The notes under the pieces are model-generated. The model was not told where the DNA came from, made no database searches, and was given only the letters and a program-made list of their open reading frames with translations. From positions 67,024,001 through 67,088,000 of the forward strand of contig CM059432.1 of assembly GCA_030390025.1 (NCBI GenBank): a stretch of 64,000 nucleotides of DNA, read 5' to 3'. Position 1 is the first letter of the stretch; every line of letters starts with the position of its first letter. This document shows, one piece after another, positions 5,835 to 57,684 of the stretch. Made by a program: the position numbers and the translations under genes. The DNA comes from Squalus acanthias (lineage: Eukaryota).

Positions 5835-7172
5835 TTTACCCACTGATTGAAACATTAGCTTGTTAAAATAAAAGCTGTCTCATTGATATTTAGTACCATA
5901 ATTATTATTGCAATGTCCAATACAATTTTTCTTCCGATGTTTGTACCTTTTGCACAACAACACTGATGTAAATATTCCACAATTCTCAACTTTCTAGTTT
6001 ATTTAATCCAAAAACATCTATGTGTGCAAAAACATTTTGCAATTGGCTTTTCTTGGTTTCATCAATCATAACCCTTATGGGAAACACCTGACAGTGGAAA
6101 GGCACCTAATATGCACTTCTACTTGCCCCATGCTTCTGGAAAGTCCAGTGACTACCCACTTTTATGTGGGTGCCCAGTTCCCTCTCCACTATCCAGCTCC
6201 ACCTTGGCCTTCTGTGTAAGGGGGCCTAACCAAATTATTTTCTAAAAAAAAGACAATCTTTCTTCAGGGGTCCGCTGGTAGGGCCCACTGCGGTTTGTCT
6301 GCAGGCAAATTTGCCTCATCTTTCACAACCTACTCACCTCCAATATTATGCGCGGGGCACTTATGAGCCAGGAAGCAGGAACTCCCAATGTAGGAAGTCC
6401 CTGGCACTGGCTCAGCTCCCTCGGCTCCACAGACTTGCCGACATACTTTCAAAATTATTTGGGAATATCTCCCATATTGCACAACATCTCACTCATTGCC
6501 AATTTTTCAATTTGTTTTGTGTTCTAATTTCTCCCCGTGTTCTCTTTTGCAAAATGTTTACTACATTTCCATCCAACTGAGTGGCAGGTCTTCCCTGTGC
6601 AAATGTACCACCGCTATTCAAGAAAGGAGGGAGAGAGAAAACAGGGAACTACAGGCCAGTTAGCCTGACATCAGTCATCGACACAATGCCGGAATCCATT
6701 GTTAAGGAAGTGGTATCAGGGCACTTAGAAAATGATAACATGATTAGGCAGAGTCAACATGGTTTTATGAAAGGCAAATCATGTTTGACAAATTTATTAG
6801 AGTTTTTTGAGGATGTAACTAGCAGGGTAGATAAAGGGGAACCAGTGGATGTAGTATATTTGGAATTCCAAAAGGCATTCGATATGGTGCCACATAAAAG
6901 GTTATTACACAAGATTAGGGCTCATGGGGTTGGGGTAATATAGTAGCATGGATAGAGGATTGGTTAACGGACAGAAAACAGAGAGTAGGGATAAACGGAT
7001 CTTTTTCAGATTGGTAGGCTGTAACTAGTGGGGTGCCGCAAGGATCAGTGTTGGGGCCTCAGCTATTTACAATCTATATTAATGACCTAGATGAAGGGAC
7101 CGAGTGTAATGTATCCAAGTTTGCTGATGATACAAAGCTAGGTGGAACAGTAAGCTGTGAGGAGAACACAAA

Positions 7173-30149: not shown

Positions 30150-31830
30150 AACATAAGAACATAAGAAATAGGAGCAGGAGTAGGCCAATCGGCCCCTCGA
30201 GCCTGCTCCGCCATTCAATAAGATCATGGCTGATCTGATCCTAACCGCCAATCTACTATCTATCACAGAACCATCTCCTGCATCTAACAGAATTGCACAC
30301 ACGAAATAGGAGCAGAATCAGGCTACACAGTCCCTGGGCCCGCTCCACTACCCACAGGGCCATGACCGATCCGAACCTAGACTCATGTCCAAATTCCTGC
30401 CCGCTCCCCGTAACCCTTAATGCCCTTTACTTCTAGGAAACTGTCTATTTCTGTTTTAAATTTAATTAATGTTGTAGCTTCTACAGCTTTTTGTGGCAGC
30501 ATATTCCATGGACCTACCACCCTCTGAGTGAAGTAGTTCCTCCTCATCTCAGTTTTGAAAGAGCAGCCCCTTATTCTAAGACTATGTCCCCTAGTTCTCG
30601 TCTCACCCGTCATCGGGAACATCCTCCCCGCATCCACCCGATCCAACCCCTTCACAATCTTATGTTTCAATAAGATCGCCTCTCATTCTTCTGAACTCCA
30701 ATGAGTAGAGTCCCAATCTACCCAACCTCTCCTCATATGACCACCCCCTCATCCCCGGGATTAACCGAGTGAACCTTTTTTGCACTGCCTCGAGAGCAAG
30801 GATGTCTTTCCTTAAGTAAGGACACCAAAACTGTATGCAGTATTCCAGGTGCGGTCTCACCAATACCTTGTACAACTGAAGCAATACCTCCCTATTTTTA
30901 TATTCTATCCCCCTAGCAATGAAAGCCAACATTCCATTTGCCTTCTTAATCACTTGCTGCACCTGCATACTAACCTTTTGAGTTTCGTTCACCAGGACCC
31001 CCAGATCCCTTTGCACTTCAGTACTCTCCAGTTTCTTGCCATTAAGATAATAAATTGCTCTAGGATTTTTCCTGCCAAAGTGCATCACCTCACACTTTCC
31101 AGTGTTGTATTCCATCTGCCAAATCTCTGCCCACTTACTTAGCCTGTCTATGTCCCCTTGCAGGTTTTTTATGTCCTCCTCACTCACTACTTTCCCTCCC
31201 ATCTTTGTATCATCTGCAAATTTTGATATGTTACACTTGGTCCCTTCCTCCAAATCGTTAATATAGATTGTGAAGAGTTGGGGACCCAGCACTGACCCCT
31301 GTGGAACACCACTAGTTACTGATTGCCAGTCTGAGAATGAACCATTTATCCCAACTCTTTGCTTTCTGTTAGATAGCCAATCCTCTATCCATGCCAGAAT
31401 ATTACCCCCAATCCCGTGATTTTTTACCTTAAGCAATAATCTTTTGTGTGGCACCTTGTCAAATGCCTTTTGGAAGTCTAAATACACTACGTCCACTGGT
31501 TCCCCTTTATCCACTCTATATGTTACTTCCTCAAAGAACTCCAGCAAATTTGTCAAACATGACTTCCCCTTCGTAAAACCATGCTGACTTTGTCCTATTA
31601 AATTATGATTATCCAAATGTCCTGTTACTGTTTCCTTAATAATGGACTCCAAAATTTTACCTACCACAGATGTTAGGCTAACCGGTCTATAGTTACCAGC
31701 CTTCTGTCTACTGCCCTTTTTAAATAAGGGTGTTACATTAGCAGTTTTCCAGTCTGCCGGGACCTTAGCGGAATCCAGGGAGTTTTGAAAAATTATTACC
31801 AATGCATCTACAATCCCTACCGCCACTTCG
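30150..31830 (-). mobile_element. Young 5'-truncated CR1 LINE in antisense orientation with an open RT frame
   Basis: Minus ORF 30660-31925 has an uninterrupted RT ([34 protein letters not shown]); 3' tail (TTCTTATG)n at 30150-30165. Confidence 0.95.
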
Positions 31831-33450
31831 AAGATAAGGAGGGTATCAAATTGAAAGAAAAGGCATACAATGTTGCGAAGAGTAGTGGTAGGCCAGAGGA
31901 TTGGGAAATTTTTAGAAACCAGCAAAGGATGTCTAAAAAAATTATAAAGAGGGAGAAGATAGAGTATGAGAGTAAACTAGCAAATAATATAAAAAGTCAG
32001 CAAGAGCTTCTACAGGTATATACAAAGGAAGAGAGTAGCTAAAGTAAACATTGGTCCCTTAGAGGATGAGACTGGGGAATTAATAATGGGAAATGGCAGA
32101 GACTCTAAACAATTATTTTGGATTGGTCTTCACGGTTGAAGAGACTAAAAACATCCCAATAATAATTGATAATCAAGGGGCTATAGGGAGGGAGGAACTT
32201 AAAACATTCACTATCACTAGAGAAAAAGTACTAGGCAAACTAATGGGGCTAAAGGCTGACAAGTCCCCTGGACCTGATGGCCTGCATTCTAAGGTCTTAA
32301 AAGAAGTGGCTGCAGAGATAGTGGATGCATTAGTTGTAATCTACCAAAATTCCCTGGATTCTGGAGAGGTCCCAGTGGATTGGAAAACCACAAATGTAAT
32401 GCGACTATTCAAGAAAGGAGGGAGACAGAAAGCAGGAAACTATAAGCCAGTTAGCCTAACATCTGTCATTGGGAAAATGCTGGAATCCATTATTAAGGAG
32501 GTAATAGCAGGACATTTAGAAAAACATGAGACAATCAAGCAGAGTCAACATGGTTTTATGAAAGGGAAATTGTGTTTGACAAATCTGCTAGAGTTCTTTG
32601 AGGATGTAACAAACAGGGTGGATAAAGGGGAACCAGTAGATGTAGTATATATTTGGATTTCCAGAAGGCATTCGATAAAGGTGCCACATAAAAGGTTACT
32701 GCACAAGATAAAAGTGCACGGGGTTGGGGGTAATATATTGGCATGGATAGGGGAGTGGCTAACTAACAGAAAACAGAGAGTCGGGATAAATGGGTCATTT
32801 TCCGGTTGGCAACCAGTAACTAGTGGGGTGCCACAGGGATCAGTGTTGGGATCTCAACTATTTACAATCTATATTAATGACTTGAATGAAGGGACCGAGT
32901 GTACTGTAGCCAAATTTGCTGATGATACAAAGATAGGTGGGTTAACAAGTTGTGAGGAGGACACAAAGAGTCTGCAAAGGAATATAGATAGGTTAAGTGA
33001 GTGGGCAAAAATTTGGCAGATGGAGTATAATGTGGGAAAATGTGAGGTTATCCACTTTGGAAGGAAGAATGAAAAAGCAAATTATTATTTAAATGGTATG
33101 AGACTACAAAATGCTGCGGTACAAAGGGATCTGGGGGTCCTAGTACATGAAACACAAAAAGTTAGCATGCAGGTACAGCAAGTAATTAGGAAGGGTAATG
33201 GAATGTTGGCCTTTATTGCAAGGGGTATGGAGTATAAAAGTAGGGACGTTTTGATGCAACATTACAGGGCGCTGGTGAGACCGCACCTGGAGTACTGCGT
33301 ACAGTTTTGGTCTCCATATTTAAGGAAGGATATACTTGCATTGGAGGCAGTGCAGAGAAGGTTCACTAGGTTGATTCCTGGGATGACATATGACAAAAGG
33401 TTGAGCCTATACTCATTGCAGTTTAGAAGAATGAGAGGTGATCTTATCAT

Positions 33451-33762
33451 GGGGGCAACACGGTGGCATAGTGGTTAGCACTGTTGCCTCACAGCGCCAG
33501 GGACCCGGGTTCGAATCCGGCCACGGGTGACTGTCTGTGTGGAGTTTGCACATTCTCCCCGTGTCTGCGTGGATTTCCTCCGGGTGCTCCGGTTTCCTCC
33601 CACAGTCCAAAGATGTGCGGGTTAGGTTGATTTGGCTATGATAAATTGACCCTTAGTGTTAGGGGGGATTAAATACGTGGGGTTACGGGGATAGGGTGGG
33701 ATATGTGTTGGTGCAGGCTCGATGGGCCGAAATGGCCTCTATCTGCACTGTGGGGATTCTGT
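33451..33762 (+). mobile_element. HE1-type V-SINE (tRNA head, V domain, CR1-derived tail)
   Basis: GGTGGCATAGTGGTTAGCACTG...GGTTCGAATCC A/B boxes; V domain GTGTGGAGTTTGCACATTCTCCCCGTGTCTGCGTGG..TCCGGTTTCCTCCCACAGTCCAAAG; tail GATGGGCCGAAATGGCCT; interrupts a CR1. Confidence 0.9.
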
Positions 33763-36374
33763 GAAACATAAGATTCTAAGGGGGATTGACAGGGTGGATG
33801 CCTGAGAGGATGTTTCCCCTAGTGGGGATGTCTAGAACTAGGGGGCATAGTTTCAGAATAAGGGGTCGCCCATTTAAGACGGAGATGAGGAGGAATTTCT
33901 TCTCAGAGGGTCGTGAATCTATGGAATTCTCTACCCCAGAGAGCTGTGGAGGCGGAGTCATTGAATATATTCAAGGCGGAGATTGAGACATTTGAACTAC
34001 AAGGGAGTCAAGGGGTATGGGGAGAGAGCGGGAAAGTGGTGTTGAGGCCAAGATTGGATCAGCCATGATCTTAGTGAATGGCGGAGCAGGCTCGAGGGGC
34101 CGATTGGCCTACTCCTGCTTCTTCTATTATGTTTAATAATTGAGGAATAGAGTACAAAAGCAAGGAAGCTATGCTAACCTTTCATAAAACACTCGTTTGG
34201 CATCAGCTAGAGTGTTGTGTTCAATTCTGGTCACCACACTTTAGGAAGGATGACAAAGCCTTAGAGAGGGTGTAGAAGAGATTTACTAAAATGGTACCAG
34301 GGATGAGGGACTTCAGTTATTAGGAGACAGTGGAGGAGCTGGGGTTGTTCTCCTTAGAATAGAGAGATTAAGGGGAAATTTGATAGACGTGTTCAAAACC
34401 ATGAACGAGTTTGAGTAAATAAAGAGAAACCGTTTCTAGTAGCAGAAGGGCCGGTAACCAGAGGAGACAGATTTTACACAGAGTTGTTGTGATCGGGAAT
34501 GCACTGTCTGAAAGGATGGTGGAAGCCGATTCAATAGTAACATTCAAAAGAGAATTGGATAAATACTCAAAGGGAAACAATCTGCAGGGCTATGAGGAAA
34601 GAGCAGGAGATTGGGACTAATTGACTAGCGCTACCAAAGAGCCAGCACAGGCATGATGGGCCAAATGGCCTCCTCCTGTGCTGCATCATTCGATGATTAA
34701 CATTATATATATTTATGTGTTTAAGCTGCAGTACCTTTTTCTGCACTGCTACTAGTTCAAAACAGAATTTTATACAGGTAAATGCTTAAGAGTTAGTTAT
34801 CATGCTGCGACACTATTGATAAATACAGATGGCATATATCTTGAGAGAAGTATTAGATAGTATAATTCTCATCTGAATCCCAAGATAAGGCTACTGGCTG
34901 GCAATTTACTAAAATCTATTGTTATCACTAACATTTTGTGTTTTACTTTTTTTTTGTGCATGGCCATTTTCAAAGATTTTCAAAACTGAAGTGCAATTGA
35001 AAGACATGTAGGCTAGTCTACTGCTTTGCGATGCAAATTCTGCAGACAAGAAATTCCAGGTAATCACATTATGCAGCTGTACAATACACAGGTCACCTGA
35101 TTCAGAACAGCTTTTTCTACTAAAGAGTAAAACCTGCCAACTTATTTTTACAAAAAGAAAAACATTGTTACATTAAAGTGCATTTTGTTTGCCTTCATTT
35201 GAAATATTCTCACAAAGTAGAGATAAATCAGCATTAATGATAGGAATAAAACACTTCTACAAGGCAGACATATAGATAGAGCTTCAAACTACATCGACAA
35301 GGTAGTGATTAACTCTGGATTACTTCTCAAGTTATTGTATTAGCAGCTGAAGACCCTACTTATTGACAAGAACATTTATTGTAGCATTCCAGGTTATATT
35401 TTATGTAAGCCTTTAAGATACGCTACTACACCCACTCTTCACTTCTCATTTTACCTCTGTATTCCCCAAATACTGGGATTTATCTGCTTAAAAAAAACAA
35501 ACACATTTCATACAATTTTTGTAAACTATCACAGCAGCACCTCGATGGAACACAAATTATTTCTTGAAAGACCTATAAAAAGAGGTGTAAATTAGCAATG
35601 AAATCCTGAACGCTTTAAGTTACTAACTTTAAATATATTTAGTTATATTTTCTTCCTTTTTTGATGGAGATGTGAATAATACATCAGAAATATTAAAGTA
35701 AACTAATGTATGTGCCTCATTTATAAACTACTGTACATGCCAAACATCGTACAGTGGTCCATTATGTATTGCAAATTCAATATACAACACAGGAGCTGCT
35801 TAGAATTGAGCATCATTGATAACATTGGAGATATATATATAAATATAAAATGAACTGATAATTCTAATTTCCAATAAAACAGATTTATTGTTAAAGAGAG
35901 AGAGAAAGATCAGAGTAAAGGATTTTTTTTAAATGACTACTATAAATGTTTTGAATGTCTTTTTATGGAATAACTAATAACCCTGCATATTTAATGCTAA
36001 AACAGGGGATCTAACAGTCCTAGGGGTAGAAATTAGGTCGCGCCCCATTTGGGGCGCAAATATCGTCCGCGCGCAAATATTAGCGCCTGGCGCTAATTAT
36101 CGGCACTGACAGGAAACTTCACTTTTACCGCCCCGGGAGGTGAGTGGAGCGCTAAATTAGGCGCTGCACACCTCTCTTAAGGCGCAAAGGCCTAGGAGTG
36201 AGGCGCTACCTCAGCGCACGAGCGCAGCTGCTGCCAGTTAGCGAGGGAACACAGACACACTGGCGCCGGACACTTCTTAAAGCGGGGGGGGCCACTTGCT
36301 CCCCAGCCACACCCTGCTCATTGCAGCCTTGAATCTCAGCCTGGAGAGACCTGAAATCCATTTTGCTGCCAAGC

Positions 36375-38456
36375 ATGGAGAGGGTGAGAGAACGCGCTCA
36401 TCGCTTCACCGAGCGGGCCTTGGATGCTCTGGTTGACGCAGTGGAGCGCAGACGATGCATGCTGTTCCCTGAGAGTGGCAGGAGGCCTTTGCCACGCGAG
36501 TTCAGAAGAGTGTGGAGGGAGGTGGCTCAGAGCGTCTCCTCCAGGAGCATGGTGCCCAGGACCCATGTCCAGTGCCGCAAAAAGTTCAACGACCTCACTC
36601 GGGTCGTCAGGGTGAGTGGCTTTTTCTCAATACCTCTCCATCCCTCCATCTCAACCTCACTCTATGGCCAGAGGGTCTTAAAACCCCAATGCACAACACT
36701 CATGCAACACCTATGGCCCTTTCATCAAACACACACACACATTCCACACTTTGCATACAGTAAGGGCTATTCACCTATGGGAGGCACATCAGGCAAGACC
36801 ATGGCTGCATACAGTAAGGGCTATTCACCTATGGGAGGCACATCAGGCAAGACCATGGCTGCATATTGTAAGGGCTATTCACCTATGGGAGGCACATCAG
36901 GCAAGACCATGGCTGCATATTGTAAGGGCTATTCACCTATGGGAGGCACATCAGGCAAGACCATGGCTGCATATTGTACGGGCTATTCACCTATGGGAGG
37001 CACATCAGGCAAGACCATGGCTGTATATTGACTCAGATGCTGTCCTTTTTCTTGCAGGCTAAGCTGGCTCATAATCGGAGACAGCAGCAACGGACGGGTG
37101 GAGGGCGGCTTCAGCTGCAACCCCTCAGCGATCTGGAGGAGCGCGTCCACAGGATTGTGGCAAGCCGGGTGATCGGTCCCGTCGCCACTGGAGACGCCGA
37201 CCCCGTTGTGGACAGCAATGGTAAGGTCATCACCTTTTTGTCCTCTGTCCTTCCACTTGTCCCTCACAATACCAGCCTTTGACACTTTCAATCCAACTTG
37301 CTAACTCGCTGCACTTATTCCTCCCTTACTGCCACCCTGTCCTCACGCTAAAGCCACTCTTGTACCTCCCTGCTTTCAGATGGTGATTCACCAGCTGAGG
37401 AGATGGTCCCTGAAGCTGCCACTGGGAGTGATGCTGCAGCTGAGGAGGAAGAGGAAGCCGGAGCATCAGTGCCACCCTCTCCCGAGGAAGCCCATGGCCA
37501 CACTGGGAACACGCCTTCCCCGGAGGGGAGCAGGGGGGAAGGGGCTGATGATGGTGAAGTTCCAGGACCCAGCGGGCTGCAGCAACGCCATTGGGGGGGG
37601 GGGGGGGGAGAGGGAAGAACGGGGGAGCAGGGGGGAAGGGGCTGATGATGGTGAAGTTCCAGGACCCAGCGGGCTGCAGCCACGCCATGGGGGGGGGAGG
37701 GAAGAACGGGAGCCTTCTCCCCAGAGGGAGAGTATGCCAGACACTCCTAATGCAATGGACGCAGAGGAGGAGCGGCTGATTGCAGAAATGAACAGCCAGG
37801 CGGTGGGCATGCACACTGAGCTCATGGGTGCAGTGGGAAGGGTGCCCGAATGCATTGAGGCACTGGCAAGGAGTGTGGAGCACTTCGCTGTAGCACAGGC
37901 GGATGCCACACTAAAGCTTACTGCTGCAATTCAGTCACTGGCTGCCAGGAACCCATCTGAGACTGCTCTCATGCAGACTCAGATTGAGGCCACGCGAGCA
38001 CTGACTGCTGCCATCCTCGATGGTTCGTGCACATGTCCCCGGGGCTGTCACCGCGCCGCAGCAGGCCAGCAATCTGTTCTCCGGCAAATTGCTCCGGATG
38101 CTGAAGTGCTGCCCCGTGGGAGTGCCAGTGTGTCGGGCGAGCAGGGAGTTGCTGTCCTCTCTCACGATGACAGCATTCCTGCTGCCAACACTGTCACTTC
38201 TCCACTGCACTTGCCACCGCCTGTAGGACAGACTGCTGCCGCCCATGCAGAGTTGGTGCAGTCTGCAGCCGGGCCCTCCAGGCCCAGAAGTGGTCGAGGC
38301 CGTCCTTCAGGGGCATCTGCAGTGTCAGGGTCTGACAAGCAGCAGCCTTCCACCAGCCTTGCTGCAGCCACTGAGGTCCCATTACGGAGGAGCAGTAGGG
38401 TTAGAAGGGGGGAAGTGCGCAAGGGAAGGAGATCACCTTCGAAGGGCAAAAAGTAG
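36375..38456 (+). CDS. Harbinger Myb/SANT-like DNA-binding protein; exons 36375-36611, 37058-37220, 37380-38456; frameshifted at poly-G 37593-37608 as assembled
   Basis: MERVRERAHRFTERALDALVDAVERRRCMLFP..W..VAQSV...RTHVQCRKKFNDL then AKLAHNRRQQQRTGGG (MSANTD/NAIF1-like). GT-AG introns in compatible phase; basic NLS-like C-terminus. Confidence 0.85.
36753..37022 (+). repeat. 54-bp minisatellite x5 in intron 1 of the Myb-like gene
   Basis: Unit GCATA(CA/TT)GTAAGGGCTATTCACCTATGGGAGGCACATCAGGCAAGACCATGGCT; only 2 units in copy 2 (53964-54071). Confidence 0.95.
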
Positions 38457-38583
38457 GAGGTGTGCCAAAATGCTGGTCATTTTTTTATTAAAGGCCGAGG
38501 TTCATGGCCCAACTTTTGTTTAGTGTTTTGGACATTATCTCCAGGTTGTGAGAACCAGTTATGTTATTGACTGTTTTTTTGTG

Positions 38584-38639
38584 TTTATTTCTATGAGTTT
38601 GTCATGAGGAATTGACACACACAGAGTTTGTACAATAAA
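38584..38639. terminator. Candidate bidirectional polyadenylation region between the convergent Harbinger genes
   Basis: AATAAA on + at 38634-38639 and on - at 38584-38589, in the AT-rich 295-bp gap between the two stop codons; conserved in copy 2. Confidence 0.55.
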
Positions 38640-38750
38640 TAAGTTTCTGTATTCAAAATATACATGGCTGGTGGTTGGAATTATTGGTGCCTTGGCCGGC
38701 TTAGGGGTTGCGTGCTGGGTTGATTCGTGTTTGTAGCACTGGCAGGGGCC

Positions 38751-39911
38751 CTAGAAGCGGCTTGCTATTAGTCGTTGACGGACGGCCCTTGCAGTTTGAC
38801 CATTGTGGGCCGCCCTCCTGCCTTGGTGCTGCTGCTGATCATCGTCCTCGGCCTGTTCCTCCTCTTCCTCCTCCTCCTCTTGTGGTGCTGCAAGGCCTGG
38901 TGGCATTGGCTGCGTCCTGAGGATTGCCATGTTGTGCAACATGCAGCACACCACTACGAATTTGGAAACTTGCTCAGGCGAGTACTGCAGGGCTCCTCCG
39001 GAATGGTCCAGACAGCGGAATCGTTGTTTGAGCACGCCGATTGTGCGCTCAATAATGTTCCTCGTTGCTTGTTGGCTTTCCTGGTACCGCAGCTCAGCAG
39101 GGGTGTTTGGCGCACGGAGCGGTGTCATCAGCCAGGTGCTCAATGCGTACCCCTTGTCCCCCAGAAGCCAACCAACTGGCTGATGCGGTGCCTCGAAAAT
39201 TTCTGCCACAGTACTCTGGCGCAGGATGAAAGCATCGTGGCAGCTGCCCGGATAGTGGGCATTGACAGCGAGAATCACCTGTCTGTGGTCACAGACCAAC
39301 TGCACATTCAAGGAATGGAACCCCTTTCTGTTCCGGAACTCCTCTGCATTCTCTCGCGGAGCACGCAAAGCCACATGCGTGCAGTCAATGGCGCCCTGCA
39401 CCATGGGGAAGCCCGCTACCCTCGCAAAGCCCATAGCACGGTCATGCTGCTTGTCTGGGGTCATAGGGAAGGAGATGAAGTCTCGTCTCCTTGTGAAGAG
39501 GGCATTGGTGACCTGCCGGATGCAGCGATGCACCGCAAACTGGGAGATATTGGCGAGGTCCCCAACAGCAGCTTGGAATGAGCCAGTGGCGTAGAAGTTC
39601 AAAGCCACTGTGACCTTCACTGCCACCGACAGAGACGTCCTGGACCTCAGCTGAGGCTGCAGATCTGGCTGCAGCAGGTGGCAGAGCTCAGTGACCACCT
39701 CCTTGCTGAATCGCAGCCTTCGCAAACACAGCTCCTCGGACATGTGGATGTAGGAGAGCTGTTCACGATATACCCTGGGAGGGTAAGCTCTCCTGTACAT
39801 GCGCCTGATGGCCCTCCTCCGTCTGGCCATCATTGCCACTCTCTGTCTGCGTCTCACTCTCCTCCGATTGAGCTGGAGCAGGACGACGCCCCCAATCATT
39901 GCAGCCCCCAT
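38751..39911 (-). CDS. Harbinger (HARBI1-like) DDE transposase, 386 aa, open frame
   Basis: Catalytic motifs [63 protein letters not shown]. Confidence 0.96.
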   Translation of the reverse strand: MGAAMIGGVVLLQLNRRRVRRRQRVAMMARRRRAIRRMYRRAYPPRVYREQLSYIHMSEELCLRRLRFSKEVVTELCHLLQPDLQPQLRSRTSLSVAVKVTVALNFYATGSFQAAVGDLANISQFAVHRCIRQVTNALFTRRRDFISFPMTPDKQHDRAMGFARVAGFPMVQGAIDCTHVALRAPRENAEEFRNRKGFHSLNVQLVCDHRQVILAVNAHYPGSCHDAFILRQSTVAEIFEAPHQPVGWLLGDKGYALSTWLMTPLRAPNTPAELRYQESQQATRNIIERTIGVLKQRFRCLDHSGGALQYSPEQVSKFVVVCCMLHNMAILRTQPMPPGLAAPQEEEEEEEEQAEDDDQQQHQGRRAAHNGQTARAVRQRLIASRF

Positions 39912-40589
39912 ATTCTCTTTGCCAGAAAAGTAATGAGGTACAGCAACGAAAGTAGCAGCAAAGTTAGGATGAACTAGGCAAAACTACCTCACAAAGCGTT
40001 GAGTCAATGTAGAAGTCTCTCTCTCTCTCTCTCCGAATCTCTCTCTCTCTCTCAGAACGAGTGGTGCATAAATGTCGACCACAGAAAAAGACAGGAAGAG
40101 GCCCCCTTTAAATAGCGCCCCCCCCAGCCCCACACCGATTGATAACGTTCCAGTCTTCCGGTCGTTGGAAGCGCCAGGCGGTAAGGCAGGGGGCGCCACT
40201 CAATTTCCGCTCCGGGGCGCCCCAAGGGCGTTGCACCACGGAATGACGTCACAATCTGCGCGCGCAGGTGGTCGCAGCGGTAAGTTTTAGCGCCGCCGCA
40301 CAATCTCAAGTTAAGTTCTCGAGCGTCGCAAACAGCGCTGCGCCCGGGCGTTAGCGCCTTAACGCCCCATTAGCGCCCATTTAAGGCGCTAACGGGAGGC
40401 GCAACCAACTGAATTTTTACCCCCTACTGTCTAACAGTCCTGTCTGAAAAGGTGATACTTCATTTAAGGATAATGGAAAATAATTAAGATGGCCTATTGC
40501 TTTGCCTGTAAATTTATCTTAAAGCAAGCACAGAAGCTACAAATAATGTTTTCCATTGAATCTCTGAGCGCCACATTTAAAAAAAATGT

Positions 40590-40990
40590 GTATGGGATGT
40601 GGGCGTCGCTGGCAAGGCCAGCATTTATTGTCCATCCCTAATTGCCCTCAAGAAGCTGGAGGTGAGCCGCCTTGAACCGCTGCAGTTTGTGTGGTGAAGG
40701 TACTCCCACAGTGCTGTTAGGTAGGAGTTCCAGGATTTTGACCCAGCGACGATGAAGGTTCGGCGATATATTTCCAAGTCAGGATGGTGTGTAACTTGGA
40801 GGGGAACTTGAAGGTGATGGCGTTCCCATGCGCCTGCTGCCCTTGTCCTTCGAGGTGGAAGAGGTCGCGGGTTTGGGAGGTGCTGCCAAAGAAGCCTTGG
40901 AGAGTTGCTGCAGTGCATCTTGTAGATGGTACACACTGCAGCCACGGTGGAGGGAGTGAATGTTTTTAAGGTGGTGGATGGGGTGCATCT
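40590..40990 (-). mobile_element. 3' fragment of a CR1/L2-group LINE of a different family
   Basis: Minus-strand peptide TVAAVCTIYKMHCSNSPRLLWQHLP...SKSWNS followed by AATAAATGCTGGCC at the 3' end. Confidence 0.6.
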
Positions 40991-42139: not shown

Positions 42140-44400
42140 TACAGATAATGTCACTGAAGGGTAGAATGTAGATGAGGAAGCCAAGGATGTATCCTTGGTA
42201 AACTCCAAAGGTGACTGTGCAGGGACTGGAGGAAAAGGCATAACAGATATACTGGCTATGTTGGCAACCAACACAAAGGCAGTCTCCAATGAGCTATGGA
42301 AGCTAGGCGATGAAGGAGGGTGGCATGGCTGTCCAAGGAAAGACTGAGGAGGACATGGAGGGAAAGCACGCTCTGGTCGCAGACACAGAGGATATCATTG
42401 GTGAATTGCATCACGGCAATCTCGATGTTGTGAAGCAGGCAGAAACCAGACTCAATGGATTTCAATAGGGAGTCATGGGAGAAGTGGAAATGGAGCTAGG
42501 AGGTGATAACACATTCCAGGACCTTAGACTGGAATGAGAGGTTAGAGATGGAATGATAGCTGGAGTGGACAGACAGGTAAAGAGTGGGATTCATGATAAG
42601 GAAGAGACAATGGCTAAACAAAGGATGCCCCAACAATGTTGGAAAGCACTAGGGCTAGGAAAGACAACTTAGTGGCCAGGAGTTGGGTAGGGAGAAGTTC
42701 AAGGCGGCATAAGGGGGGGGGGGAGAAATTCGGTATTGCCTCGTTTGGGGCGCAATTATCGGCTGGGCGCAGTTTAGAGCCTGGCGCTAATTATCGCCTC
42801 CGACTGCAAACTTGGCTTCTATCGCCCCTGGAGGTGATTGAAGCGCTAAATCAGGCGCTACACACCTCTCAAGGCGCTAACGCCGAGAGTGAGGCGCTAC
42901 CTCAGAGCACTGGCGAAGCTCATGTGATGTCAGTCAGCAATGGAACAGACACACTGGCGCCGGCCAGTTCTTAAAAGGGGAGGGTCAATCTTGCTCTCCA
43001 TCCACAGCCTGCTCATTGCAGCCTTGCATCTCGGCCTGGAGAGACCTGTACATCAATTCTGCTGGAAAGAACAATGGAGAGGCCCAGGGAAAGAGTTCAG
43101 AGTGCAGCCCCCATAGTCTCTTCTAAATCGATGCAAGGAAGGTCAAATCAAAATGAACCTGCAAAGTGCTGCTCAGTACCCAAAACTCCTTCACACAGCG
43201 TTGAATCTCTCCAGAAGTCTCTCTCCCTCTCTCTCAGAATGCGTGGTGCAAAAATGTCGCTGACCAAAAAAGGCAGGAAGCGTCCGCCTTTAAATAGCAC
43301 TCCCCCAGTCCCTTCCCGACTGAAGGCGGAAAGGCAGGGGGCGCCACTCAATAACCGGTCCGGGGCGCTACATGCTCGACTGATGTCACGATCTGCAGGC
43401 ACAGGAGATCGTGGCGTAGTGTTTAGCGCCGCCGCAAAATGTCTGGTCAATTTCGCGAGTGGCGCAAACATCGCCGCGCTCAGGCGCTAGTTGCTTTGCG
43501 CCCCATTAGCGTCCTCTTAGGGCGCCAACAGGAGGCACAACGCAACCAAATTTTTCCCCCCCAAGGTGTTTTTATTTTGCAAGAAATTAGCTTGGAGATG
43601 AGAGAGAAGCTGCACAGTGACAAGGTCAGGGTTAGGATAAGTTATGGGAGGAATTTATAGTTCAGGTAATTAATCTTAAACTTTCAGGTGAAGTAGTCCA
43701 TGACCATCTCATATTTAATCTTAAAGATGAGGGGGGAAGGAAGGTGTTTGAGGAGGATTTGGCACAGAGAAAATGAACATGGATAAAACTTACCTTCCAG
43801 GATGATCCTGGAGTAGGAAGTTGATGTGCTGTTGAAAGGGAGACATAGTAATGCTCAACATAGTAATACCAGGTTTGGTGGTCAAAAACTCGGCCAGTCA
43901 TGTCCCATGTGTTATCACGTCTATGGCCCTCAGAATTTATAGGGAGCTGTACCAGGAAAATGAGAGCAGTGGGAGATGGTGGTGAATTGGCATAAGACAG
44001 AAGTAATGCAGCTGTTTAGCAGGTCAACAGCAGCAGTGATGTTGCAATAAGTGGAAGGTCAGAAGAAAGTAAATCAGGTGTTAGAATATGAATTGGTGAG
44101 GGAGCCAAGTGAGGTGGGGAGAGGCAGTGTGCTTTCCAGGGGTGCAGGCCAAGGATATTGGGGTTGGGGGATAGGCAGAGAGATTTAGATGGTAAGGAAG
44201 GAGGAAATGGTCAAAGCTGGACATGGCATAATTTAAATCTCAGAAGTGGCAGGATCGAGGGTGCGACCACAGGTATGGGTGAGGAAGTTAACGTGAAGAG
44301 TGAGGCTATAGAGGACAGTAGGGTGGAGGAGTCAGGAAAGGAGTGTGGGGAAATAAAGTGGAGGCTGAAGTCAGAGGATGAGTAGTTGCTCAATGCAAAG
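42140..44400 (-). mobile_element. Old L2-like LINE remnants, interrupted by a MITE
   Basis: Minus ORF 42256-42465 QFTNDILCVCD..SLHVLLSLS..HATLLHRL resembles L2 RT; purine-rich degenerate flanks. Confidence 0.55.
42714..43562. mobile_element. MITE/deletion derivative of the intact Harbinger family
   Basis: G-run GGGAGAAATT / AATTTTTCCCCCCC ends with TSD AAG. Both subterminal regions align with copy 1; the Myb start (ATGGAGAGG near 43074) is fused to the reverse transposase start (tgcagccccca). Confidence 0.9.
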
Positions 44401-46365: not shown

Positions 46366-48262
46366 TGAAGGGGTCTTAAGTCAGTATTTTGGAGTCAGAT
46401 TGATTTGACACGGATTTAAAGAAATTAGTTTGCAGTGATGCAAAAGTTTAACTACTGCAATTCGAGATATTTCCACAAAAGCAAGACCGTTCTTACAACC
46501 AACTTCCTGCCATTAACATTTTTGCACTGCAGCATAAAAAAAGTATAGCACTGAATAAATGCTGATGGATTTAAAGCACAAGTGTATAATCACCATCAAT
46601 GATCTAATAAACAAAGTTATTTGCAAGTTTTCTTTTGCCATGCATAAAAATTGAAATTAGAAAATAAATCATGTTTAATTGTTAGAAAACACAGGGCTGA
46701 TACAAAAGGACTGCAATTTCCAAAGAGCTCCCCAGTGGAAGGCTGGTTTGTGACTGATTGAGCTATTAGTTCAGATTATATTTATTCCTCAAATTTTGGA
46801 AGTGATGAACAGGGGATTCTTTATTTTCTGTGTTTTGTAGCACAACTAATCTAATTTCACAGGAACTGAATGGGGTCTTGTCAGATCCATCCTTAGTCCT
46901 ATACACACAAGGGATTTAAACCTTATTAAACTAGAATTTACTTCAGAGAAAGTAGAGAAACAGATCAAAACTAGATAATAAATTACATGGGGATGTAACT
47001 GATTTTTTGTTTAAGTTTAAAGCACTTCTGAACCATCGAAACAGCAACGGTTTCTTCTGGCAGAAGAATTGATAGGGTGATTCCAACTACCATAATTATT
47101 GATTTCAAATAAAGGCATCATATTTAGAAATATTGAGGGTCTATAATTTCAAAACATAACTTCAGTTGGGATATTTGCTCTTTGCTGTACAGGGAGTAAT
47201 ATGACAGGTGATTGTTAATTCTGTTTGCTGGTCAGATGCAACACTTCAGGCTGATTCCTAATGATATGCTTTACAGAAATATCCCATCAATATACTTTAA
47301 AAATATCTTTTTAAAAATAAGTCAGAATGCCAGAAGGCATGCAGTAACTCTTGGCACTGTAATTTGTAAAGTTATTTTGATCTAAGGAGACTGGCCTAAC
47401 CTCAATTATGTCAGAAGATGCAAGGAAATTCATGAAATGTTCTGTATCTTGTTTTTTGATGAACACTATATTTACACTACAAAAATAGACAATGAAATGT
47501 CAATATCAGTAAAGAGAATATCAATCCCCTAACAAAGCAAAACTCATTCTGCTTAAATAAATTATGATACAATTAGATTGTCTTAAAAATAAAACTTACA
47601 TGTCACTAAAGCTAAAACTAGGCAAGGACTTCAAAAATGAATACCTCATCCTGTGACAAATCCTGAGATTTTTAGGCATTCACTGATTATAGCATGATTC
47701 TCTGTCCATCTCCCCTCCTCCAAGGAGCATGTTTTTCTAAAAAGAATTCCCCAAAAGATGTGAAAATTCTGTTTTTTTGGTTCCCGTTTCTTTTGAGGCA
47801 GCTCTAATTATCCATCAGTGCATACCAAATTTCAGTGTTTCTCTCAATTTACTTCGGTGATCTGTATGCACAGTTTGGCCAATGAACCGTTATCATGCCA
47901 GGTTTTAATCTTCTCTGTCATAATTATGCAATTTTGTACAACTGAACTATCTGACTATTCCTCTTGGGCTGGCCTTTCTTCAAACTGCCTCAAATTGAAT
48001 TAATATTTGAGTGGCACTTAAGAGTTACTAACCTTTCAGGTGCATGATTTTCTTTTCCTCAAACTTAACCTTATTGTGGTACTACAATAGAAAAAAATCC
48101 TCACAGATGGATGTACAATACAGTTATGCTCAGTTCCACAATTCCCTGGACCATTTTGTGATAAAATAAAAGTCCTCTCCAGCTCATCTTAATTCACATT
48201 GTTGGGAGTGATATTCATGCTGTTGGAGTGATGATCTGGCGTAAGCCCAGAAAGAACACAAG

Positions 48263-49640
48263 GGGCTATAAATTGGTTAGTCCCTGAAAATGGGCGCGGG
48301 GATTGCAATTAAGCCATGCCCGTTGAGTGGAATGCAGGCAGCACGCCAACTTCGTATCGCTTGCTAACTATAATGGTTTGTGTGTGCAGCCAATGAACAC
48401 CGCAGGAAGCGTTCCACTTCCCAAACTGTTCATTGACTGCACACATCAGCAGGGGGCCCAATATCGTTCGTAACTTGCACGTCTTAAAGCTAGCCTGCAC
48501 TTCTTAAAGTGGAGGTGCATTGAGGCTGCAGCAGGTGCTGGGAGTGCTTCTGCAAATGAATCTGACCTGGGAAAAAAGAATGGCTGACCATGGGAGAGAG
48601 CGGGCCCCCAGGTTTTTGGACACTGCACTGGAGGTCTTGGTGGAGGTGGTGAGGAGTGATGACCTGTATCCACAGGGGGGCAGGAGGCCCTCCAGTCATA
48701 CGATGAGAAGGCAGTGGGAGCAGATAGCCGTGGAGGTTAATGCAACGAGTATAGCCCTAAGGTTTGTTTTGTTTGGGATTGATATTCTCTTTACTGATAT
48801 TGGCATTTCATTGTCTATTTTTGTAGTGTAAATATAGTGTTGATCAAAAAACAAGATACAGAACATTTCATGAATTTTCTTGCATCTTCTGACATAATTG
48901 AGGTTAGGCCAGTCTCCTTCGATCAAAATAACTTTACAAATTACAGTGCCAAGAGTTACTGCATGCCTTCTGGCATTCTGACTTTTTTTTAAAAAAAAGA
49001 TGGCGCATGAACCTGCTGTCTTCTTTTAGAATGGCACCATTTATGCGCGCACCCCTCCCACTCCGCCAGTGCCCTTGCAGTTGCCTGCCAGTTTATTTTA
49101 GTATGCAATATGGCATGATTTAATTTATAAATTTGCATTGGAATGTGTATTTTGTTTTGGCTTTTATTTTTGCATTGTGGCCAAGAGGACGATGTGATGG
49201 TCAGCGACAGAGGGAAGGTAAGGCGTATGGGACTGTTGGTGAAAGGGGGTTGGGGTTCAGGTTACTGGTATTGTTGTTGAATTAGTTGTTCACGTACAGC
49301 CCGGGCAGAAAGGGGCTTTTTAGGTTGCAGCCTCCCTTCCTGTTCTGCGCTGCCTCTTCCTCGTGGTCCTGGTTCTCAGCTTCCTGCACGATAGGTGGTG
49401 GCAAGTGCTGTTCCCTCATGATGGCTAGTTTGTGCAGCATAGAGAGCCTCGGTGATCTCCTTTATGGAGCAGTACATTGCAAGCTGCAAGATGTTGCTAA
49501 TATCTCCAGGAAGGAGCCAGATGCATAGAAGTTCATAGCCACAGTCACCTTCACAGCCACTGGCAATGCAGTCCTTGCCCCACTCTGAGGTTGTAGTTGT
49601 AGTTGAAGCAGTTGGCAGGCTTCAGTGATGACCTCCTTAG
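48263..49640. mobile_element. Rearranged Harbinger remnant: left end, Myb exon 1, captured host DNA, transposase fragments
   Basis: TIR-like GGGGCTATAAATTGG; MADHGRERAPRFLDTALEVLVEVV..WEQIAVEVNA on +; EVITEACQLLQ..TALPVAVKVTVAMNFYASGSF on -. Truncated by a CR1 tail at about 49640. Confidence 0.85.
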
Positions 49641-50970
49641 AATCAAAGAAATTTACAGCACAGAAGGAAGCCGTTTGGCCCATAGTGTCTGTGCCGGCCC
49701 AAAAAGTGCTATCCAGCCTAATCCCACTTTCCAGCTCTTGGTCCGTAGCCCTGTAGGTTATGGCACTTTAAGCGTACATCCAAGTACTTTTAAAATGCGA
49801 TGAGGGTTTCTGCCTCTACCACCCTTTCAGACAGCGAGTTCCAGACCCCTACCATCTTCTGGGTGAAAAAAAGGTCTCAACTCCTCTAATCCTTCTACCA
49901 ATTACATTAACCTCTCTGCTAAGGGAAATAGGTCCTTCCTATCCACTCTATCTAGGCCCCTCATAATTTTATACACTTCAATTTTTCAATAACCAGGGTT
50001 TTCTTTTTATCTAAAATCTCCACCATCCCTTGATCCTCCACAATTCGACTACCTCCTTCATCCCAGAGTGGTCGTACCCATTCTGAACTATTCTTTTACT
50101 TTTTAAAGATCTTATATAAAAGCTATTAATATTTCCTTTTATATTATTTTCTAGCCTTTTTTCCCAATTGCCTTTATCCCTTTTCACCTCTCTAGGTACA
50201 CTTTATTTCCTCCTGATTATCTTTAGTATGGTATAGATAATTTTATCAGAAGCCTTCCTTTTAAGTTTTTTAAATTTTAATTTCCATTTATCCTCAGCAT
50301 TCCATTCTTTGATGCACCCATTTTTCACCTTATAAAGGTACTTATTTTGTGCTCTATGCATCTCATATTTGAAGAGTGCCCAGTTCATTTGAGCTGTATT
50401 TCTTATCCCACTGCTTTTTCTAGGCCAGTACCCTCATCTTTGACTCTTTCTATTGTTTTGTTCTTGAATTGATCACAACCAACTTGTGGTTGCTATTTTT
50501 CCTACTCTTTGGTTATTTGCTCCATATAATTTCCAGAACTAAATCAAGCAATGTTTCTTTCCTTGTTGGACTATTGGTCCAGGAAGCAATCCTACCCCGC
50601 TCCACTACTTTGATCACATGCATTTCCCTCCAGTCTATATTAGGATAGTTAAAATCATCCAATATACTTGTCTTGTTGTTCTTGTATATCACTCTGAAAC
50701 GTCTTCAGATCTCCCCCTCTGCCTCATCTCCACTATTTGGCTTGTAATGCACACCAAGGATTATACCATTTCCATTTATTCACACTATCCATATGGATTC
50801 TGTCTTAAGGTAACTCCCTTGGATATCCTTAAATAAAACAGCATAAATAGAATCTTCAATAACTCTGCCATTCCATCCACTTTTTTTCCTCTCACTTCTA
50901 AAAATTTATAAACAAGAACATGAAGTGCTCAGTCCTGTCCAATCCCAAGACAATTCTCCATTATAGCTAC
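49640..50970 (-). mobile_element. CR1 3' fragment (49640-49985) plus older degenerate CR1 endonuclease-region remnant
   Basis: Reverse match to the CR1 3' end at 20300-20660; further up, remnants resembling GDFNY and LDLVLG. Confidence 0.7.
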
Positions 50971-53222: not shown

Positions 53223-53587
53223 AATGTTGTAGAGAATGGTATGCTATTGAAGCAGAGAAGACCAAGTCAATAACACTTGCTCAAGAAAGACTGACCTTGA
53301 TGAAGGCCACTGGTTTATGTTTTCACAGATAGACATATGGCCGGGAGGTGAGTGGAGCGCTAAATTAGGCGCTGCACACCTCTCTTAAGGCGCAAAGGCC
53401 AAGGAGTGAGGCGCTACCTCAGCGCACGAGCGCAGCGCAGCTGCTGCCAGTTAGCGAGGGAACACAGACACACTGGCGCCGGACACTTCTTAAAGCGGGA
53501 GGGGCCACTTGCTCCCCAGCCACACCCTGCTCATTGCAGCCTTGAATCTCAGCCTGGAGAGACCTGTAATCCATTTTGCTGCCAAGC

Positions 53588-55413
53588 ATGGAGAGGGTGA
53601 GAGAACGCGCTCATCGCTTCACCGAGCGGGCCTTGGATGCTCTGGTTGACGCAGTGGAGCGCAGACGATGCATGCTGTTCCCGGAGAGTGGCAGGAGGCC
53701 TTTGCCACGCGAGTTCAGAAGAGTGTGGAGGGAGGTGGCTCAGAGCGTCTCCTCCAGGAGCATGGTGCCCAGGACCCATGTTCAGTGCCGCAAAAAGTTC
53801 AACGACCTCACTCGGGTCGTCAGGGTGAGTGGCTTTTTCTCAATACCTCTCCATCCCTCCATCTCAACCTCACTCTATGGCCAGAGGGTCTTAAAACCCC
53901 AATGCACAACACTCATGCAACACCTATGGCCCTTTCATCAAATACACACACATTCCACACTTTGCATACAGTAAGGGCTATTCACCTATGGGAGGCACAT
54001 CAGGCAAGACCATGGCTGCATATTGTAAGGGCTATTCACCTATGGGAGGCACATCAGGCAAGACCATGGCTGTATATTTACTCAGATGCTGTCCTTTTTC
54101 TTGCAGGCTAAGCTGGCTCATAATCGGAGACAGCAGCAACGGACGGGTGGAGCGCGGCTTCAGCTGCAACCCCTCAGCGATCTGGAGGAGCGCGTCCACA
54201 GGATTGTGGCAAGCCGGGTGATCGGTCCCGTCGCCACTGGGGACGTCGACCCCGTTGTGGACAGCAATGGTAAGGTCATCACCTTTTTGTCCTCTGTCCT
54301 TCCACTTGTCCCTCACAATACCAGCCTTTGACACTTTCAATCCAACTTGCTAACTCGCTGCACTTATTCCTCCCTTACTGCCACCCTGTCCTCACGCTAA
54401 AGCCACTCTTGTACCTCCCTGCTTTCAGATGGTGATTCACCAGCTGAGGAGACGGGCCCTGAAGCTGCCACTGGGAGTGATGCTGCAGCTGAGGAGGAAG
54501 AGGAAGCCGGAGCATCAGTGCCACCCTCTCCCGAGGAAGCCCATGCCCACACTGGGAACACGCCTTCCCCGGAGGGGAGCAGGGGGGAAGGGGCTGATGA
54601 TGGTGAAGCTCCAGGACCCAGCGGGCTGCAGCAACGCCATGGGGGGGGGGGGGGAGGGAAGAACGGGAGCCTTCTCCCCAGAGGGAGAGTATGCCAGACA
54701 CTCCTACTGCTATGGACGCAGAGGAGGAGCGGCTGATTGCAGAAATGAACAGCCAGGAGGTGGGCATGCACACTGAGCTCATGGGTGCAGTGGGAAGGGT
54801 GCCCGAATGCATTGAGTCACTGGCAAGGAGTGTGGAGCACTTCGCTGTAGCACAGGCGGATGCCACACTGAAGCTTAGTGCTGCAATTCAGTCACTGGCT
54901 GCCAGGAACCCATCTGAGACTGCTCTCATGCAGACTCAGATTGAGGCCACGCGAGCACTGACTGCTGCCATCCTCGATGGTTCGTGCACATGTCCCCGGG
55001 GCTGTCACCGCGCCGCAGCAGGCCAGCAATCTGTTCTCCGGCAAATTGCTCCGGATGCTGAAGTGCTGCCTCGTGGGAGTGCCAGTGTGTCGGGCGAGCA
55101 GGGAGTTGCTGTCCTCTCTCACGATGACAGCATTCCTGCTGCCAACACTGTCACTTCTCCACTGCACTTGCCACCGCCTGTAGGACAGACTGCTGCCGCC
55201 CATGCAGAGTTGGTGCAGTCTGCAGCCGGGCCCTCCAGGCCCAGAAGTGGTCGAGGCCGTCCTTCAGGGGCATCTGCAGTGTCAGGGTCTGACGAGCAGC
55301 AGCCTTCCACCAGCCTTGCTGCAGCCACTGAGGTCCCATTACGGAGGAGCAGTAGGGTTAGAAGGGGGGAAGTGCGCAAGGGAAGGAGATCACCCTCGAA
55401 GGGCAAAAAGTAG
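53588..55413 (+). CDS. Harbinger Myb/SANT-like protein, copy 2; exons 53588-53824, 54107-54269, 54429-55413; frameshifted at G14 tract 54641-54654 as assembled
   Basis: Same exon structure and sequence as copy 1, without the exon 3 duplication. Confidence 0.85.
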
Positions 55414-55707
55414 GAGGTGTGCCAAAATGCTGGTCAATTTTTTATTAAAGGCCGAGGTTCATGGTCCAACTTTTGTTTAGTGTTTTGGACATTATCTCCA
55501 GGTTGTGAGAACCAGTTATGTTATTGACTGTTTTTTTGTGTTTATTTCTATGAGTTTGTCATGAGGAATTGACACACACAGAGTTTGTAAAATAAATAAG
55601 TTTCTGTATTCAAAATATACATGGCTGGTGGTTGGAATTATTGGTGCCTTGGCCGGCTTAGGGGTTGCGTGCTGGGTTGATTAGTGTTTGTAGCAATGGC
55701 AGGGGCC

Positions 55708-56859
55708 CTAGAAGCGGCTTGCTATTAGTCGTTGACGGACGGCCCTTGCAGTTTGACCATTGTGGGCCGCCCTCCCGCCTTGGTGCTGCTGATGATCATC
55801 GTCCTCGTCCTGTTCCTCCTCCTCCTCTGGTGGTGCTACAAGGCCTGGTGGCATTGGCTGGGTCCTGAGGATTGCCATGTTGTGCAACATGCAGCACACG
55901 ACTACGAAGTTCGAAACTTGCTCAGGCGAGTACTGCAGGGCTCCTCCGGAATGGTCCAGACAGCGGAACCGTTGTTTCAGCACGCCGATTGTGCGCTCAA
56001 TAATGTTCCTGGTTGCTTGATGGCTTTCATTGTACCGCAGCTCAGCAGGGGTGTTTGGCGTACGGAGCGGTGTCATCAGCCAGGTGCTCAATGCGTACCC
56101 CTTGTCCCCCAGAAGCCAACCAACTGGCTGATGCGGTGCCTCGAAAAGTTCTGCCACAGTAGTCTGGCGCAGGATGAAAGCATCGTGGCAGCTGCCCGGA
56201 TAGTGGGCATTGACAGCGAGAATCACCTGTCTGTGGTCACAGACCAACTGCACATTCAAGGAATGGAACCCCTTTCTGTTCCTGAATTCCTCTGCATTCT
56301 CTCGCGGAGCACGCAAAGCCACATGCGTGCAGTCAATGGCGCCCTGCACCATGGGGAAGCCCGCTACCCTCGCAAAGCCCATAGCACGGTCATGCTGCTT
56401 GTCTGGGGTCATAGGGAAAGAGATGAAGTCTCGTCTCCTTCTGAAGAGGGCATTGGTGACCTGCCGGATGCAGCGATGCACCGCAAACTGGGAGATATTG
56501 GCGAGGTCCCCAACAGCAGCTTGGAATGAGCCAGTGGCGTAGAAGTTCAAAGCCACTGTGACCTTCACTGCCACCGACAGAGACGTCCTGGACCTCAGCT
56601 GAGGCTGCAGATCTGGCTGCAGCAGGTGGCAGAGCTCAGTGACCACCTCCTTGCTGAATCGCAGCCTTCGCAAACACAGCTCCTCGGACATATGGATGTA
56701 GGAGAGCTGTTCACGATATACCCTGGGAGGGTAAGCTCTCCTGTACATGCGCCTGATGGCCCTCCTCCGTCTGGCCATCATTGCCACTCTCTGTCTGCGT
56801 CTCACTATCCTCCGATTCAGCTGGAGCAGGACGACGCCCCCAATCATTGCAGCCCCCAT
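55708..56859 (-). CDS. Harbinger (HARBI1-like) DDE transposase, 383 aa, open frame
   Basis: GAIDCTH, LLGDKGY, YNESHQATRNIIERTIGVLKQRFRCL and CCMLHN all intact. Confidence 0.96.
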   Translation of the reverse strand: MGAAMIGGVVLLQLNRRIVRRRQRVAMMARRRRAIRRMYRRAYPPRVYREQLSYIHMSEELCLRRLRFSKEVVTELCHLLQPDLQPQLRSRTSLSVAVKVTVALNFYATGSFQAAVGDLANISQFAVHRCIRQVTNALFRRRRDFISFPMTPDKQHDRAMGFARVAGFPMVQGAIDCTHVALRAPRENAEEFRNRKGFHSLNVQLVCDHRQVILAVNAHYPGSCHDAFILRQTTVAELFEAPHQPVGWLLGDKGYALSTWLMTPLRTPNTPAELRYNESHQATRNIIERTIGVLKQRFRCLDHSGGALQYSPEQVSNFVVVCCMLHNMAILRTQPMPPGLVAPPEEEEEQDEDDDHQQHQGGRAAHNGQTARAVRQRLIASRF

Positions 56860-57684
56860 ATTCTCTTTGCCAGAAAAGTAATGAGGTACAGCAACTAAAG
56901 TAGCAACAAAGTTAGGATGAACTAGGCCAAACTACCTCACAAAGCGTTGAGTCAATGTAGAAGTCTCTCTCTCTCTCTCTCTCCGAATCTCTCTCTCTCT
57001 CTCAGAACGAGTGGTGCATAAATGTCGACCACAGAAAAAGACAGGAAGAGGCCCCCTTTAAATAGCGCCCCCCCCAGCCCCACACCGATTGATAACGTTC
57101 CAGTCTTCCGGTCGTTGGAAGCGCCAGGCGGTAAGGCAGGGGGCGCCACTCAATTTCCGCTCCGGGGCGCCCCAAGGGCGTTGCACCATGGAATGACGTC
57201 ACAATCTGCGCGCGCAGGTGGTCGCAGCGGTAAGTTTTAGCGCCGCCGCACAATCTCAAGTTAAGTTCTCGAGCGGCGCAAACAGCGCTGCGCCCGGGCG
57301 TTAGCGGCTTAACGCCCCATTAGCGCCCTCTTAAGGCGCTAACGGGAGGCGCAACCAAGTGAATTTTTACCCCATGGAATTGGATAAAAACTACAAAATC
57401 CCACAAAAACAGAACATGGCCCTCCAATATGTGTTATTTCAGCTTTTGACAAAACTCTGAAAATATTTAAAACAAAACCTCAAAATTAAAATTTTAAAAG
57501 GTTACAATAAAAAAAAAAATACTTGTTTCATTAAGGATTAATTACGTGAATCTTGGTTAATGCAATGAAATTCTGGGGGAAACCTCTGAAACATTTTGAT
57601 CATACACCTTTTAACGTATGACAGTGACCCAAGGCACTTCAGAGGCATAAGGAGTGCAGCGCTTTGCTAAATTTACTCTGTAGT

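Follow-up and report, generated by a model that had tools for sequence, protein, structure and literature searches.

A probably non-autonomous copy of a recently mobile, NuwaI-like Harbinger family in Squalus acanthias

Described Harbinger systems and the element compared with them

In the zebrafish element Harbinger3_DR, the transposase is paired with a Myb-like protein that binds a subterminal motif and is required for nuclear entry of the transposase (PMC9710019, PMC2836001). The same two-protein design is found in an element, here called copy 1, at positions 36023-40423 (4401 bp) of a 64,000-nucleotide stretch of Squalus acanthias DNA (assembly GCA_030390025.1, contig CM059432.1, positions 67,024,001 to 67,088,000 of the forward strand; hereafter the window), where a Myb/SANT partner gene (+) and a DDE transposase gene (-) lie tail-to-tail, with AATAAA between them on both strands. 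Harbinger3_DR was rebuilt from consensus sequences, whereas the shark family, known from sequence alone, has a natural empty allele and probably spliced transcripts. With a probability that we put at about 0.72, copy 1 is a probably non-autonomous member of a high-copy, recently mobile NuwaI-like Harbinger family, and an empty allele of its site persists.

In the broad sense (PHIS) copy 1 is a PIF/Harbinger element, having a DDE_Tnp_4 transposase with its catalytic triad, a Myb/SANT second gene (frameshifted in copy 1), short terminal inverted repeats (TIRs) starting with G and a target-site duplication (TSD) of 3 bp. The TWA duplication of PIF/Harbinger in the narrow sense (Han et al. 2015, PMC4482050) was absent from the three elements of the window, which are flanked by CTA, ATG and AAG; all three triplets miss CWG by one base on one strand without any exact match, and only CTA is backed by an empty site. 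By its features copy 1 resembles NuwaI as described in PMC4482050 and may belong to that group: both encode a DDE and a Myb/SANT protein in two open reading frames (ORFs), have TIRs that begin with GGG and measure 12 bp or more, carry a 3-bp TSD, occur in animal hosts and are ~4.5 kb long (mean ~4462 bp for NuwaI vs 4401 in copy 1). NuwaI differs in having CWG duplications by definition, and the 16 hosts given in that source comprise no cartilaginous fish.

A high-copy vertebrate Harbinger is already known in Harbinger-Snek, which makes up 8-12% of sea krait genomes, with 269 intact copies in L. colubrina, and which likewise includes damaged as well as non-autonomous variants, with RNA covering both ORFs (PMC8437027). 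According to the same source Harbinger-Snek was horizontally transferred from marine invertebrates, whereas the shark transposase falls among proteins of sharks and rays (best identity 65%); the accessible text of PMC8437027 reports no within-species empty site. The Harbingers of the coelacanth (PMC5381603) and of teleosts (PMC9179366) are comparable in being transcribed and apparently still accumulating, with a coverage of 0.002-0.14% of the genome in teleosts (PMC9179366). In its accessible part the teleost study, a 2022 survey, gives no Harbinger for the elephant shark and calls for testing other cartilaginous fish. PIF-Harbinger is listed as present in the whale shark (PMC8455134), and shark genomes have been described as slowly evolving and dominated by long and short interspersed elements (LINEs and SINEs) (PMC5381603). 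HARBI1 and NAIF1 belong to the same protein families but are single-copy, fixed host genes without TIRs; a domesticated host gene of this kind was ruled out for the shark locus by its TIRs, TSD, multiple copies and empty allele.

The element type is thus well known, and young vertebrate Harbingers have precedents in sea kraits, coelacanth and teleosts. In the literature, subscription papers, repeat databases and supplements aside, no description of a young, high-copy or polymorphic elasmobranch Harbinger was found, and the accessible parts of PMC3014272, PMC4255032 and bioRxiv 2025.06.08.657570 contain nothing on this family; the repeat tables in shark genome supplements (e.g. Supplementary file 20 of PMC8455134) may already include it.

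Empty allele, family transcripts and coding capacity

Four of the 24 listed public runs (X1, X5, X9 and X13) were aligned to positions 35500-40590 as assembled contigs rather than raw reads; X1 and X13 come from organism A, in different samples and studies, X9 comes from organism C, and X13 is RNA by guess. A 390-nt contig of X1 (contig 1, depth 5.35) follows 35831-36018 and then passes straight to 40423-40590, with 188 letters to the left, 168 to the right, a single difference among the 356 and a single-copy-like depth; at the join, the left flank is followed by one CTA and then by the right flank. Since this join holds a single CTA, the boundaries and the 3-bp duplication of copy 1 are confirmed. 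Contig 8 of X13 likewise stops matching at 36018, where 81 of its letters are left over, its second piece not being among the rows listed, and no empty-site contig was found among the listed rows for X5 or X9. Because Harbinger excision is usually precise (PMC2836001), the empty allele may be either pre-insertion or post-excision. In X5, a joint from 40423 to 36016 (contig depth 47) reads the right TIR, a few bases and then the left end, which suggests head-to-tail copies somewhere in the genome.

The ends themselves are intact. The 12-bp TIRs (36023-36034, +, and 40412-40423, -) read GGGGTA(G/A)AAATT and match at 11 of 12 positions, for which a formula estimate gives a chance expectation of ~3e-8, and CTA stands on either side (36020-36022 and 40424-40426). 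Inside them lie a CpG-rich left subterminal region (36035-36340) with 3 GGCGCTA motifs and a right one (40100-40411, CpG observed/expected ~1.1) with 5; the motif was found 0 times in the interior of copy 1, 7 times in a miniature inverted-repeat element (MITE) described below and 0 times in the window outside the three elements. CpG observed/expected is 0.55 in copy 1 vs 0.34 across the remaining window. A TSD register shifted by one base would fit the copy 1 site, but it spoils the symmetry of the ends and misfits the MITE. The insertion lies within a short stretch of flank that is tandemly duplicated (TCTAACAGTCCT, present twice), and symmetry around CTA in the pre-insertion site was looked for, with none seen.

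With respect to abundance, 40,958 contigs of X1 aligned to the region, 9,564 of them at ≥99% identity, 14,646 at 95-99% and 16,748 at 90-95%. The summed depth of X1 has a median of ~6e5 inside the element, compared with 2.6-9 on the left flank, and division by 31 for assumed contig overlap gives a rough copy floor of ~1,800-6,400. In X9 the depth inside is 3-10 times that of the flank and the long contigs are 98.5% alike (34 of 2287 letters differ in six of the eight contigs listed). Of the exact 31-mers of this stretch, 29-48% (shares 0.29-0.48) recur in runs labelled as organisms B-E, for B and C in several studies; X9, the sole run from B-E that was aligned, also covers the left flank. Horizontal transfer may account for this sharing, but close kinship, or traces of so abundant a repeat carried over, would give an identical picture. 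Spliced transcripts of the family are probably present in X13, where 3 contigs contain a joint that skips exactly the 159 nt of intron 2, a joint found in none of the DNA runs (X1, X5 and X9).

The transposase gene is a single exon of 386 aa (38751-39911, -), which matches Pfam DDE_Tnp_4 (E 5e-38) and retains the triad D176/D252/E288. Two substitutions, N277Q and H280Q, sit in the segment shortly ahead of the catalytic glutamate E288. Among homologues with a residue at the first site, 105 of 115 have N and none has Q; at the second, 96 of 117 have H and 4 have Q. Copy 2 (see below) has N277/H280. Among the 120 best transposase relatives (365 in total), 112 carry the name of a shark or ray, the top identity being 65%, and in a quick-method tree of 37 rows picked from 122 both transposases of the window are nested among shark and ray proteins. 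A search for related solved structures gave none at E < 0.05, and a complex prediction for transposase residues 1-335 with the helical segment of the partner, run without alignments, scored 0.01.

The shark relatives are labelled in databases as 'putative nuclease HARBI1'. Short-branched, one-per-species 'HARBI1-like' clades are seen across sharks and rays (P0008/P0015/P0016/P0020/P0023/P0027; P0021/P0024/P0063; P0009/P0012; P0004/P0005; P0039/P0040), and many of their proteins are without the catalytic D or E yet keep N277/H280. In the quick tree these clades resemble the outcome of repeated domestication of this transposase lineage, specific to elasmobranchs.

The partner gene has three exons, and both introns are GT..AG. 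Exon 1 (36375-36611, +) carries a trihelix domain (Pfam Myb_DNA-bind_5, E 1.3e-9) and is 60% identical to residues 65-137 of P0122, a sawshark protein of 554 aa whose Myb domain is N-terminal; exon 2 (37058-37220, +) aligns to P0122 from residue 140. Intron 1 contains a 54-bp minisatellite (36733-37030), of which copy 1 has three units more than copy 2, and intron 2 (37221-37379, +) is the one whose splice joint occurs in X13. Exon 3 (37380-38456, +) is frameshifted as assembled: a tandem duplication of 97-bp period (37525-37701) contains a run of 16 G (37593-37608), and downstream of this run the spliced frame meets TGA at 37643, after 221 aa. A search with exon 1 against longer proteins gave 1 match. 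The downstream, C-terminal frame gave no match in a word-indexed protein search, and 10 matches with HMMER, P0122 being the best; P0122 aligns to exons 1 and 2 and to both flanks of the G run, the flanks being in different frames. On account of the HMMER matches and this alignment, the frame downstream of the G run is taken as real coding sequence, and the run has the look of a hotspot of slippage, giving rise to copies without a working partner protein. Two further proteins contain partner sequence, namely P0123, a sawshark gene model in which a PML-like RING/B-box/coiled-coil protein is fused to Harbinger partner exons 2-3, and P0129, in which it is joined to Ig domains; these represent either exon capture by host genes or annotation artefacts.

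Much of what the original prediction had claimed for copy 1 was borne out by these analyses, including both TIRs and the TSD, the retained CpGs, the open DDE transposase and the three-exon Myb/SANT gene in tail-to-tail orientation. The descriptions 'complete' and 'candidate active element' were not, given the frameshift in the partner gene as assembled and the two substitutions at conserved sites of the transposase.

A second, near-identical copy had also been proposed 13 kb away. Copy 2 (53341-57373, +) begins 12.9 kb past the end of copy 1 and is 98.4% alike (64 substitutions in 4026 aligned bases); it has, however, lost its first 110 bp, the left TIR included, and is itself frameshifted in the partner gene, the frame stopping after 235 aa, past a G14 run (54641) at the same place as the G16 run of copy 1. 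Its transposase frame of 383 aa is open. ATGG stands right before the truncated left end and again after the right TIR (53336-53341 and 57374-57377), as if the TSD, ATG, and the first G had been kept while bases 2-110 were deleted inward from the left cut site, perhaps in an abortive excision; a chance match, at about 1 in 30-60, is possible.

Between the two copies, the ratio of nonsynonymous to synonymous differences (pN/pS) is 0.27 in the transposase (Fisher P 0.003) and 0.66 and 0.44, not significant, in the partner gene. CpG transitions occurred at 4 of 370 sites, compared with 18 of 3656 at other sites, and transitions and transversions number 22/42; four CR1 pairs from the same window, which are more diverged, give 237/154 (P 1e-4). 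Given the low pN/pS, the few CpG transitions and the excess of transversions, the divergence would suit functioning lineages better than the decay of dead, methylated copies. The clustering of 17 of the 64 differences in 396 bp of the transposase (38820-39215, P 1e-4) suggests that copy 1 may be a mosaic of two sub-lineages. Variation within the family is also transversion-rich in X1 (53/90 transitions to transversions among the kinds of change listed), unlike that of nearby CR1 copies.

By analogy with Harbinger3_DR and Ping/Pong, the Myb/SANT protein would bind the GGCGCTA(A) repeats near both ends, GGCGCTAA being a candidate target sequence for its Myb domain, and would carry the DDE transposase into the nucleus. 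The transposase would then cut at the GGGG termini and insert with a 3-nt stagger, leaving the 3-bp duplication, which is itself observed. In copy 1, slippage of the partner gene at the G run and the loss of two conserved residues from the transposase would probably abolish autonomous movement. As it probably makes no working partner protein, copy 1 would depend on other copies; its intact ends should leave it movable by their proteins, and it may have arrived in trans.

Strength of the evidence and competing explanations

Several observations weigh against this reading of copy 1 and its family. The empty site is seen in one fully listed contig (X1) and one partly listed contig (X13) of the four runs, and the empty allele could come from a very close relative rather than from polymorphism within the species. 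The intron 2 joint belongs to transcripts of the family, not to copy 1 specifically, and the RNA nature of X13 is a guess; the 15 rows of X13 shown (44 more are unshown) do not include the intron 1 joint, and one X13 contig continues unspliced across the intron 1 donor. The junctions predicted earlier were accordingly recovered in part, exactly at intron 2 in this probable RNA run and not at intron 1 among those rows. Summed contig depth is no copy number, and the abundance estimate is rough. In the partner gene, an open frame of 491 aa results if one G is removed from copy 1, and one of 461 aa if one G is added to copy 2, and the lengths of the G runs, hence the frameshifts, could be homopolymer assembly errors; the listed public contigs break at the run, leaving the G length unread. 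Finally, with shark-like rates, taken from another species, a divergence of 1.6% need not be young in years.

This last point underlies one rival explanation, namely that the family is extinct, an old burst in which slow shark evolution mimics youth and in which the empty allele reflects either long-standing polymorphism left unsorted or a difference from a sister species. In the epaulette shark the mutation rate is 7e-10 per generation and the effective population size ~710,000 (PMC10587355), so that neutral polymorphisms can last millions of generations; should the host resemble it, such a span would accommodate 98% identity and even a polymorphic site. Moreover, 16,748 of the 40,958 X1 contigs are only 90-95% alike, and both copies of the window are damaged. 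Still, the transversion-rich, CpG-poor differences between the copies are unlike the decay of dead methylated sequence, and the pN/pS of 0.27, the spliced transcripts and the 9,564 X1 contigs of ≥99% identity likewise count against extinction, which we consider unlikely.

Quite improbable, in our judgement, is that copy 1 is intact and autonomous, the frameshift being a homopolymer error, the duplication merely lengthening a disordered linker and Q277/Q280 being tolerated. It is true that the frame breaks exactly in the G16 run, where one base restores the 491-aa frame, and that the triad, both TIRs and the TSD are intact; in addition, many of the 17 substitutions in 38820-39215 are synonymous, as if from another functional sub-lineage, which also speaks against a damaged copy 1. 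However, Q277 occurs in 0 of 115 homologues, N277/H280 are retained even in shark proteins without the DDE triad, and both copies of the window are out of frame in the partner gene. Furthermore, the contigs of X9 and X13 have 7 and 6 differences from copy 1 in that region of the transposase, the same as copy 2, and these matching counts suggest that N277/H280 are the common state, most of the letters not being displayed. That the empty site is a paralogous segment or a mis-joined contig, uninformative on mobility, is highly improbable, for although it is one fully listed, low-depth contig across an insertion inside a short flank duplication (TCTAACAGTCCT twice), its 188 and 168 flanking letters show 1 difference in 356, its depth is single-copy-like, the join holds exactly one CTA, and a second sample stops at the same base.

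The preferred reading is therefore that of a probably damaged copy in a recently mobile family. Recent mobility of the family, as the original prediction had it, is supported on the population scale by the empty-site contig, the probably spliced family transcript, the very high summed depth, purifying selection and little CpG decay, and the check that it proposed on insertion polymorphism yielded filled and empty alleles of one site (the X1 contig and, in part, X13). Its further suggestion of current mobility did not hold at that strength, as a shark insertion may remain polymorphic for millions of generations, and activity today is left as a possibility only. It is thus a tentative proposition, which we would not bet on, that naturally intact copies of the family are transposing at present and that a burst specific to one elasmobranch lineage has raised it to thousands or tens of thousands of copies, while organism C, a relative, keeps just a few, 98.5% alike.

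Neighbouring elements and implications for the shark lineage

The MITE (42714-43562, +) has TIRs, AAG on either side, and 80% identity to element bases 1-361 and 70% to bases 4006-4401. Because it is only 70-80% alike to the ends of the element, it is placed in an abundant sister family, perhaps with its own autonomous partner; sequence of the MITE family forms the loose end at 36353 in 54 X1 contigs. Its mobilisation by the Harbinger family, also put forward earlier, is plausible in view of the shared subterminal GGCGCTA motif and the similar TIR. Older, decayed remnants of Harbinger transposase and Myb genes lie at 4-790, 1970-2580, 8445-8630, 13440-15230 and 48574-49761, and the window has therefore been struck repeatedly by the superfamily. 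Beside a Myb remnant, inverted arms of 221 nt, 98% complementary and 1.2 kb apart (47308-47528 and 48775-48995), are possibly another young non-autonomous element. Long open LINE reverse transcriptase frames occur in inverted orientation at 30660-31976 (-) and 32087-33478 (+), and we take them to be of the CR1 type.

If the preferred reading is true, an abundant, spliced DNA transposon that is still segregating would keep feeding structural variation into a lineage where point mutations are very few, and the family would supply natural proteins for the study of a two-component vertebrate Harbinger, for which the cited cell assay used a rebuilt consensus element. Should intact transposing copies exist, the family would be a vertebrate Harbinger in its natural, unreconstructed state, actively remodelling a shark genome that mutates slowly; it would have its own transversion-rich signature of mutation, and slippage at a G-run hotspot would steadily make its copies non-autonomous.

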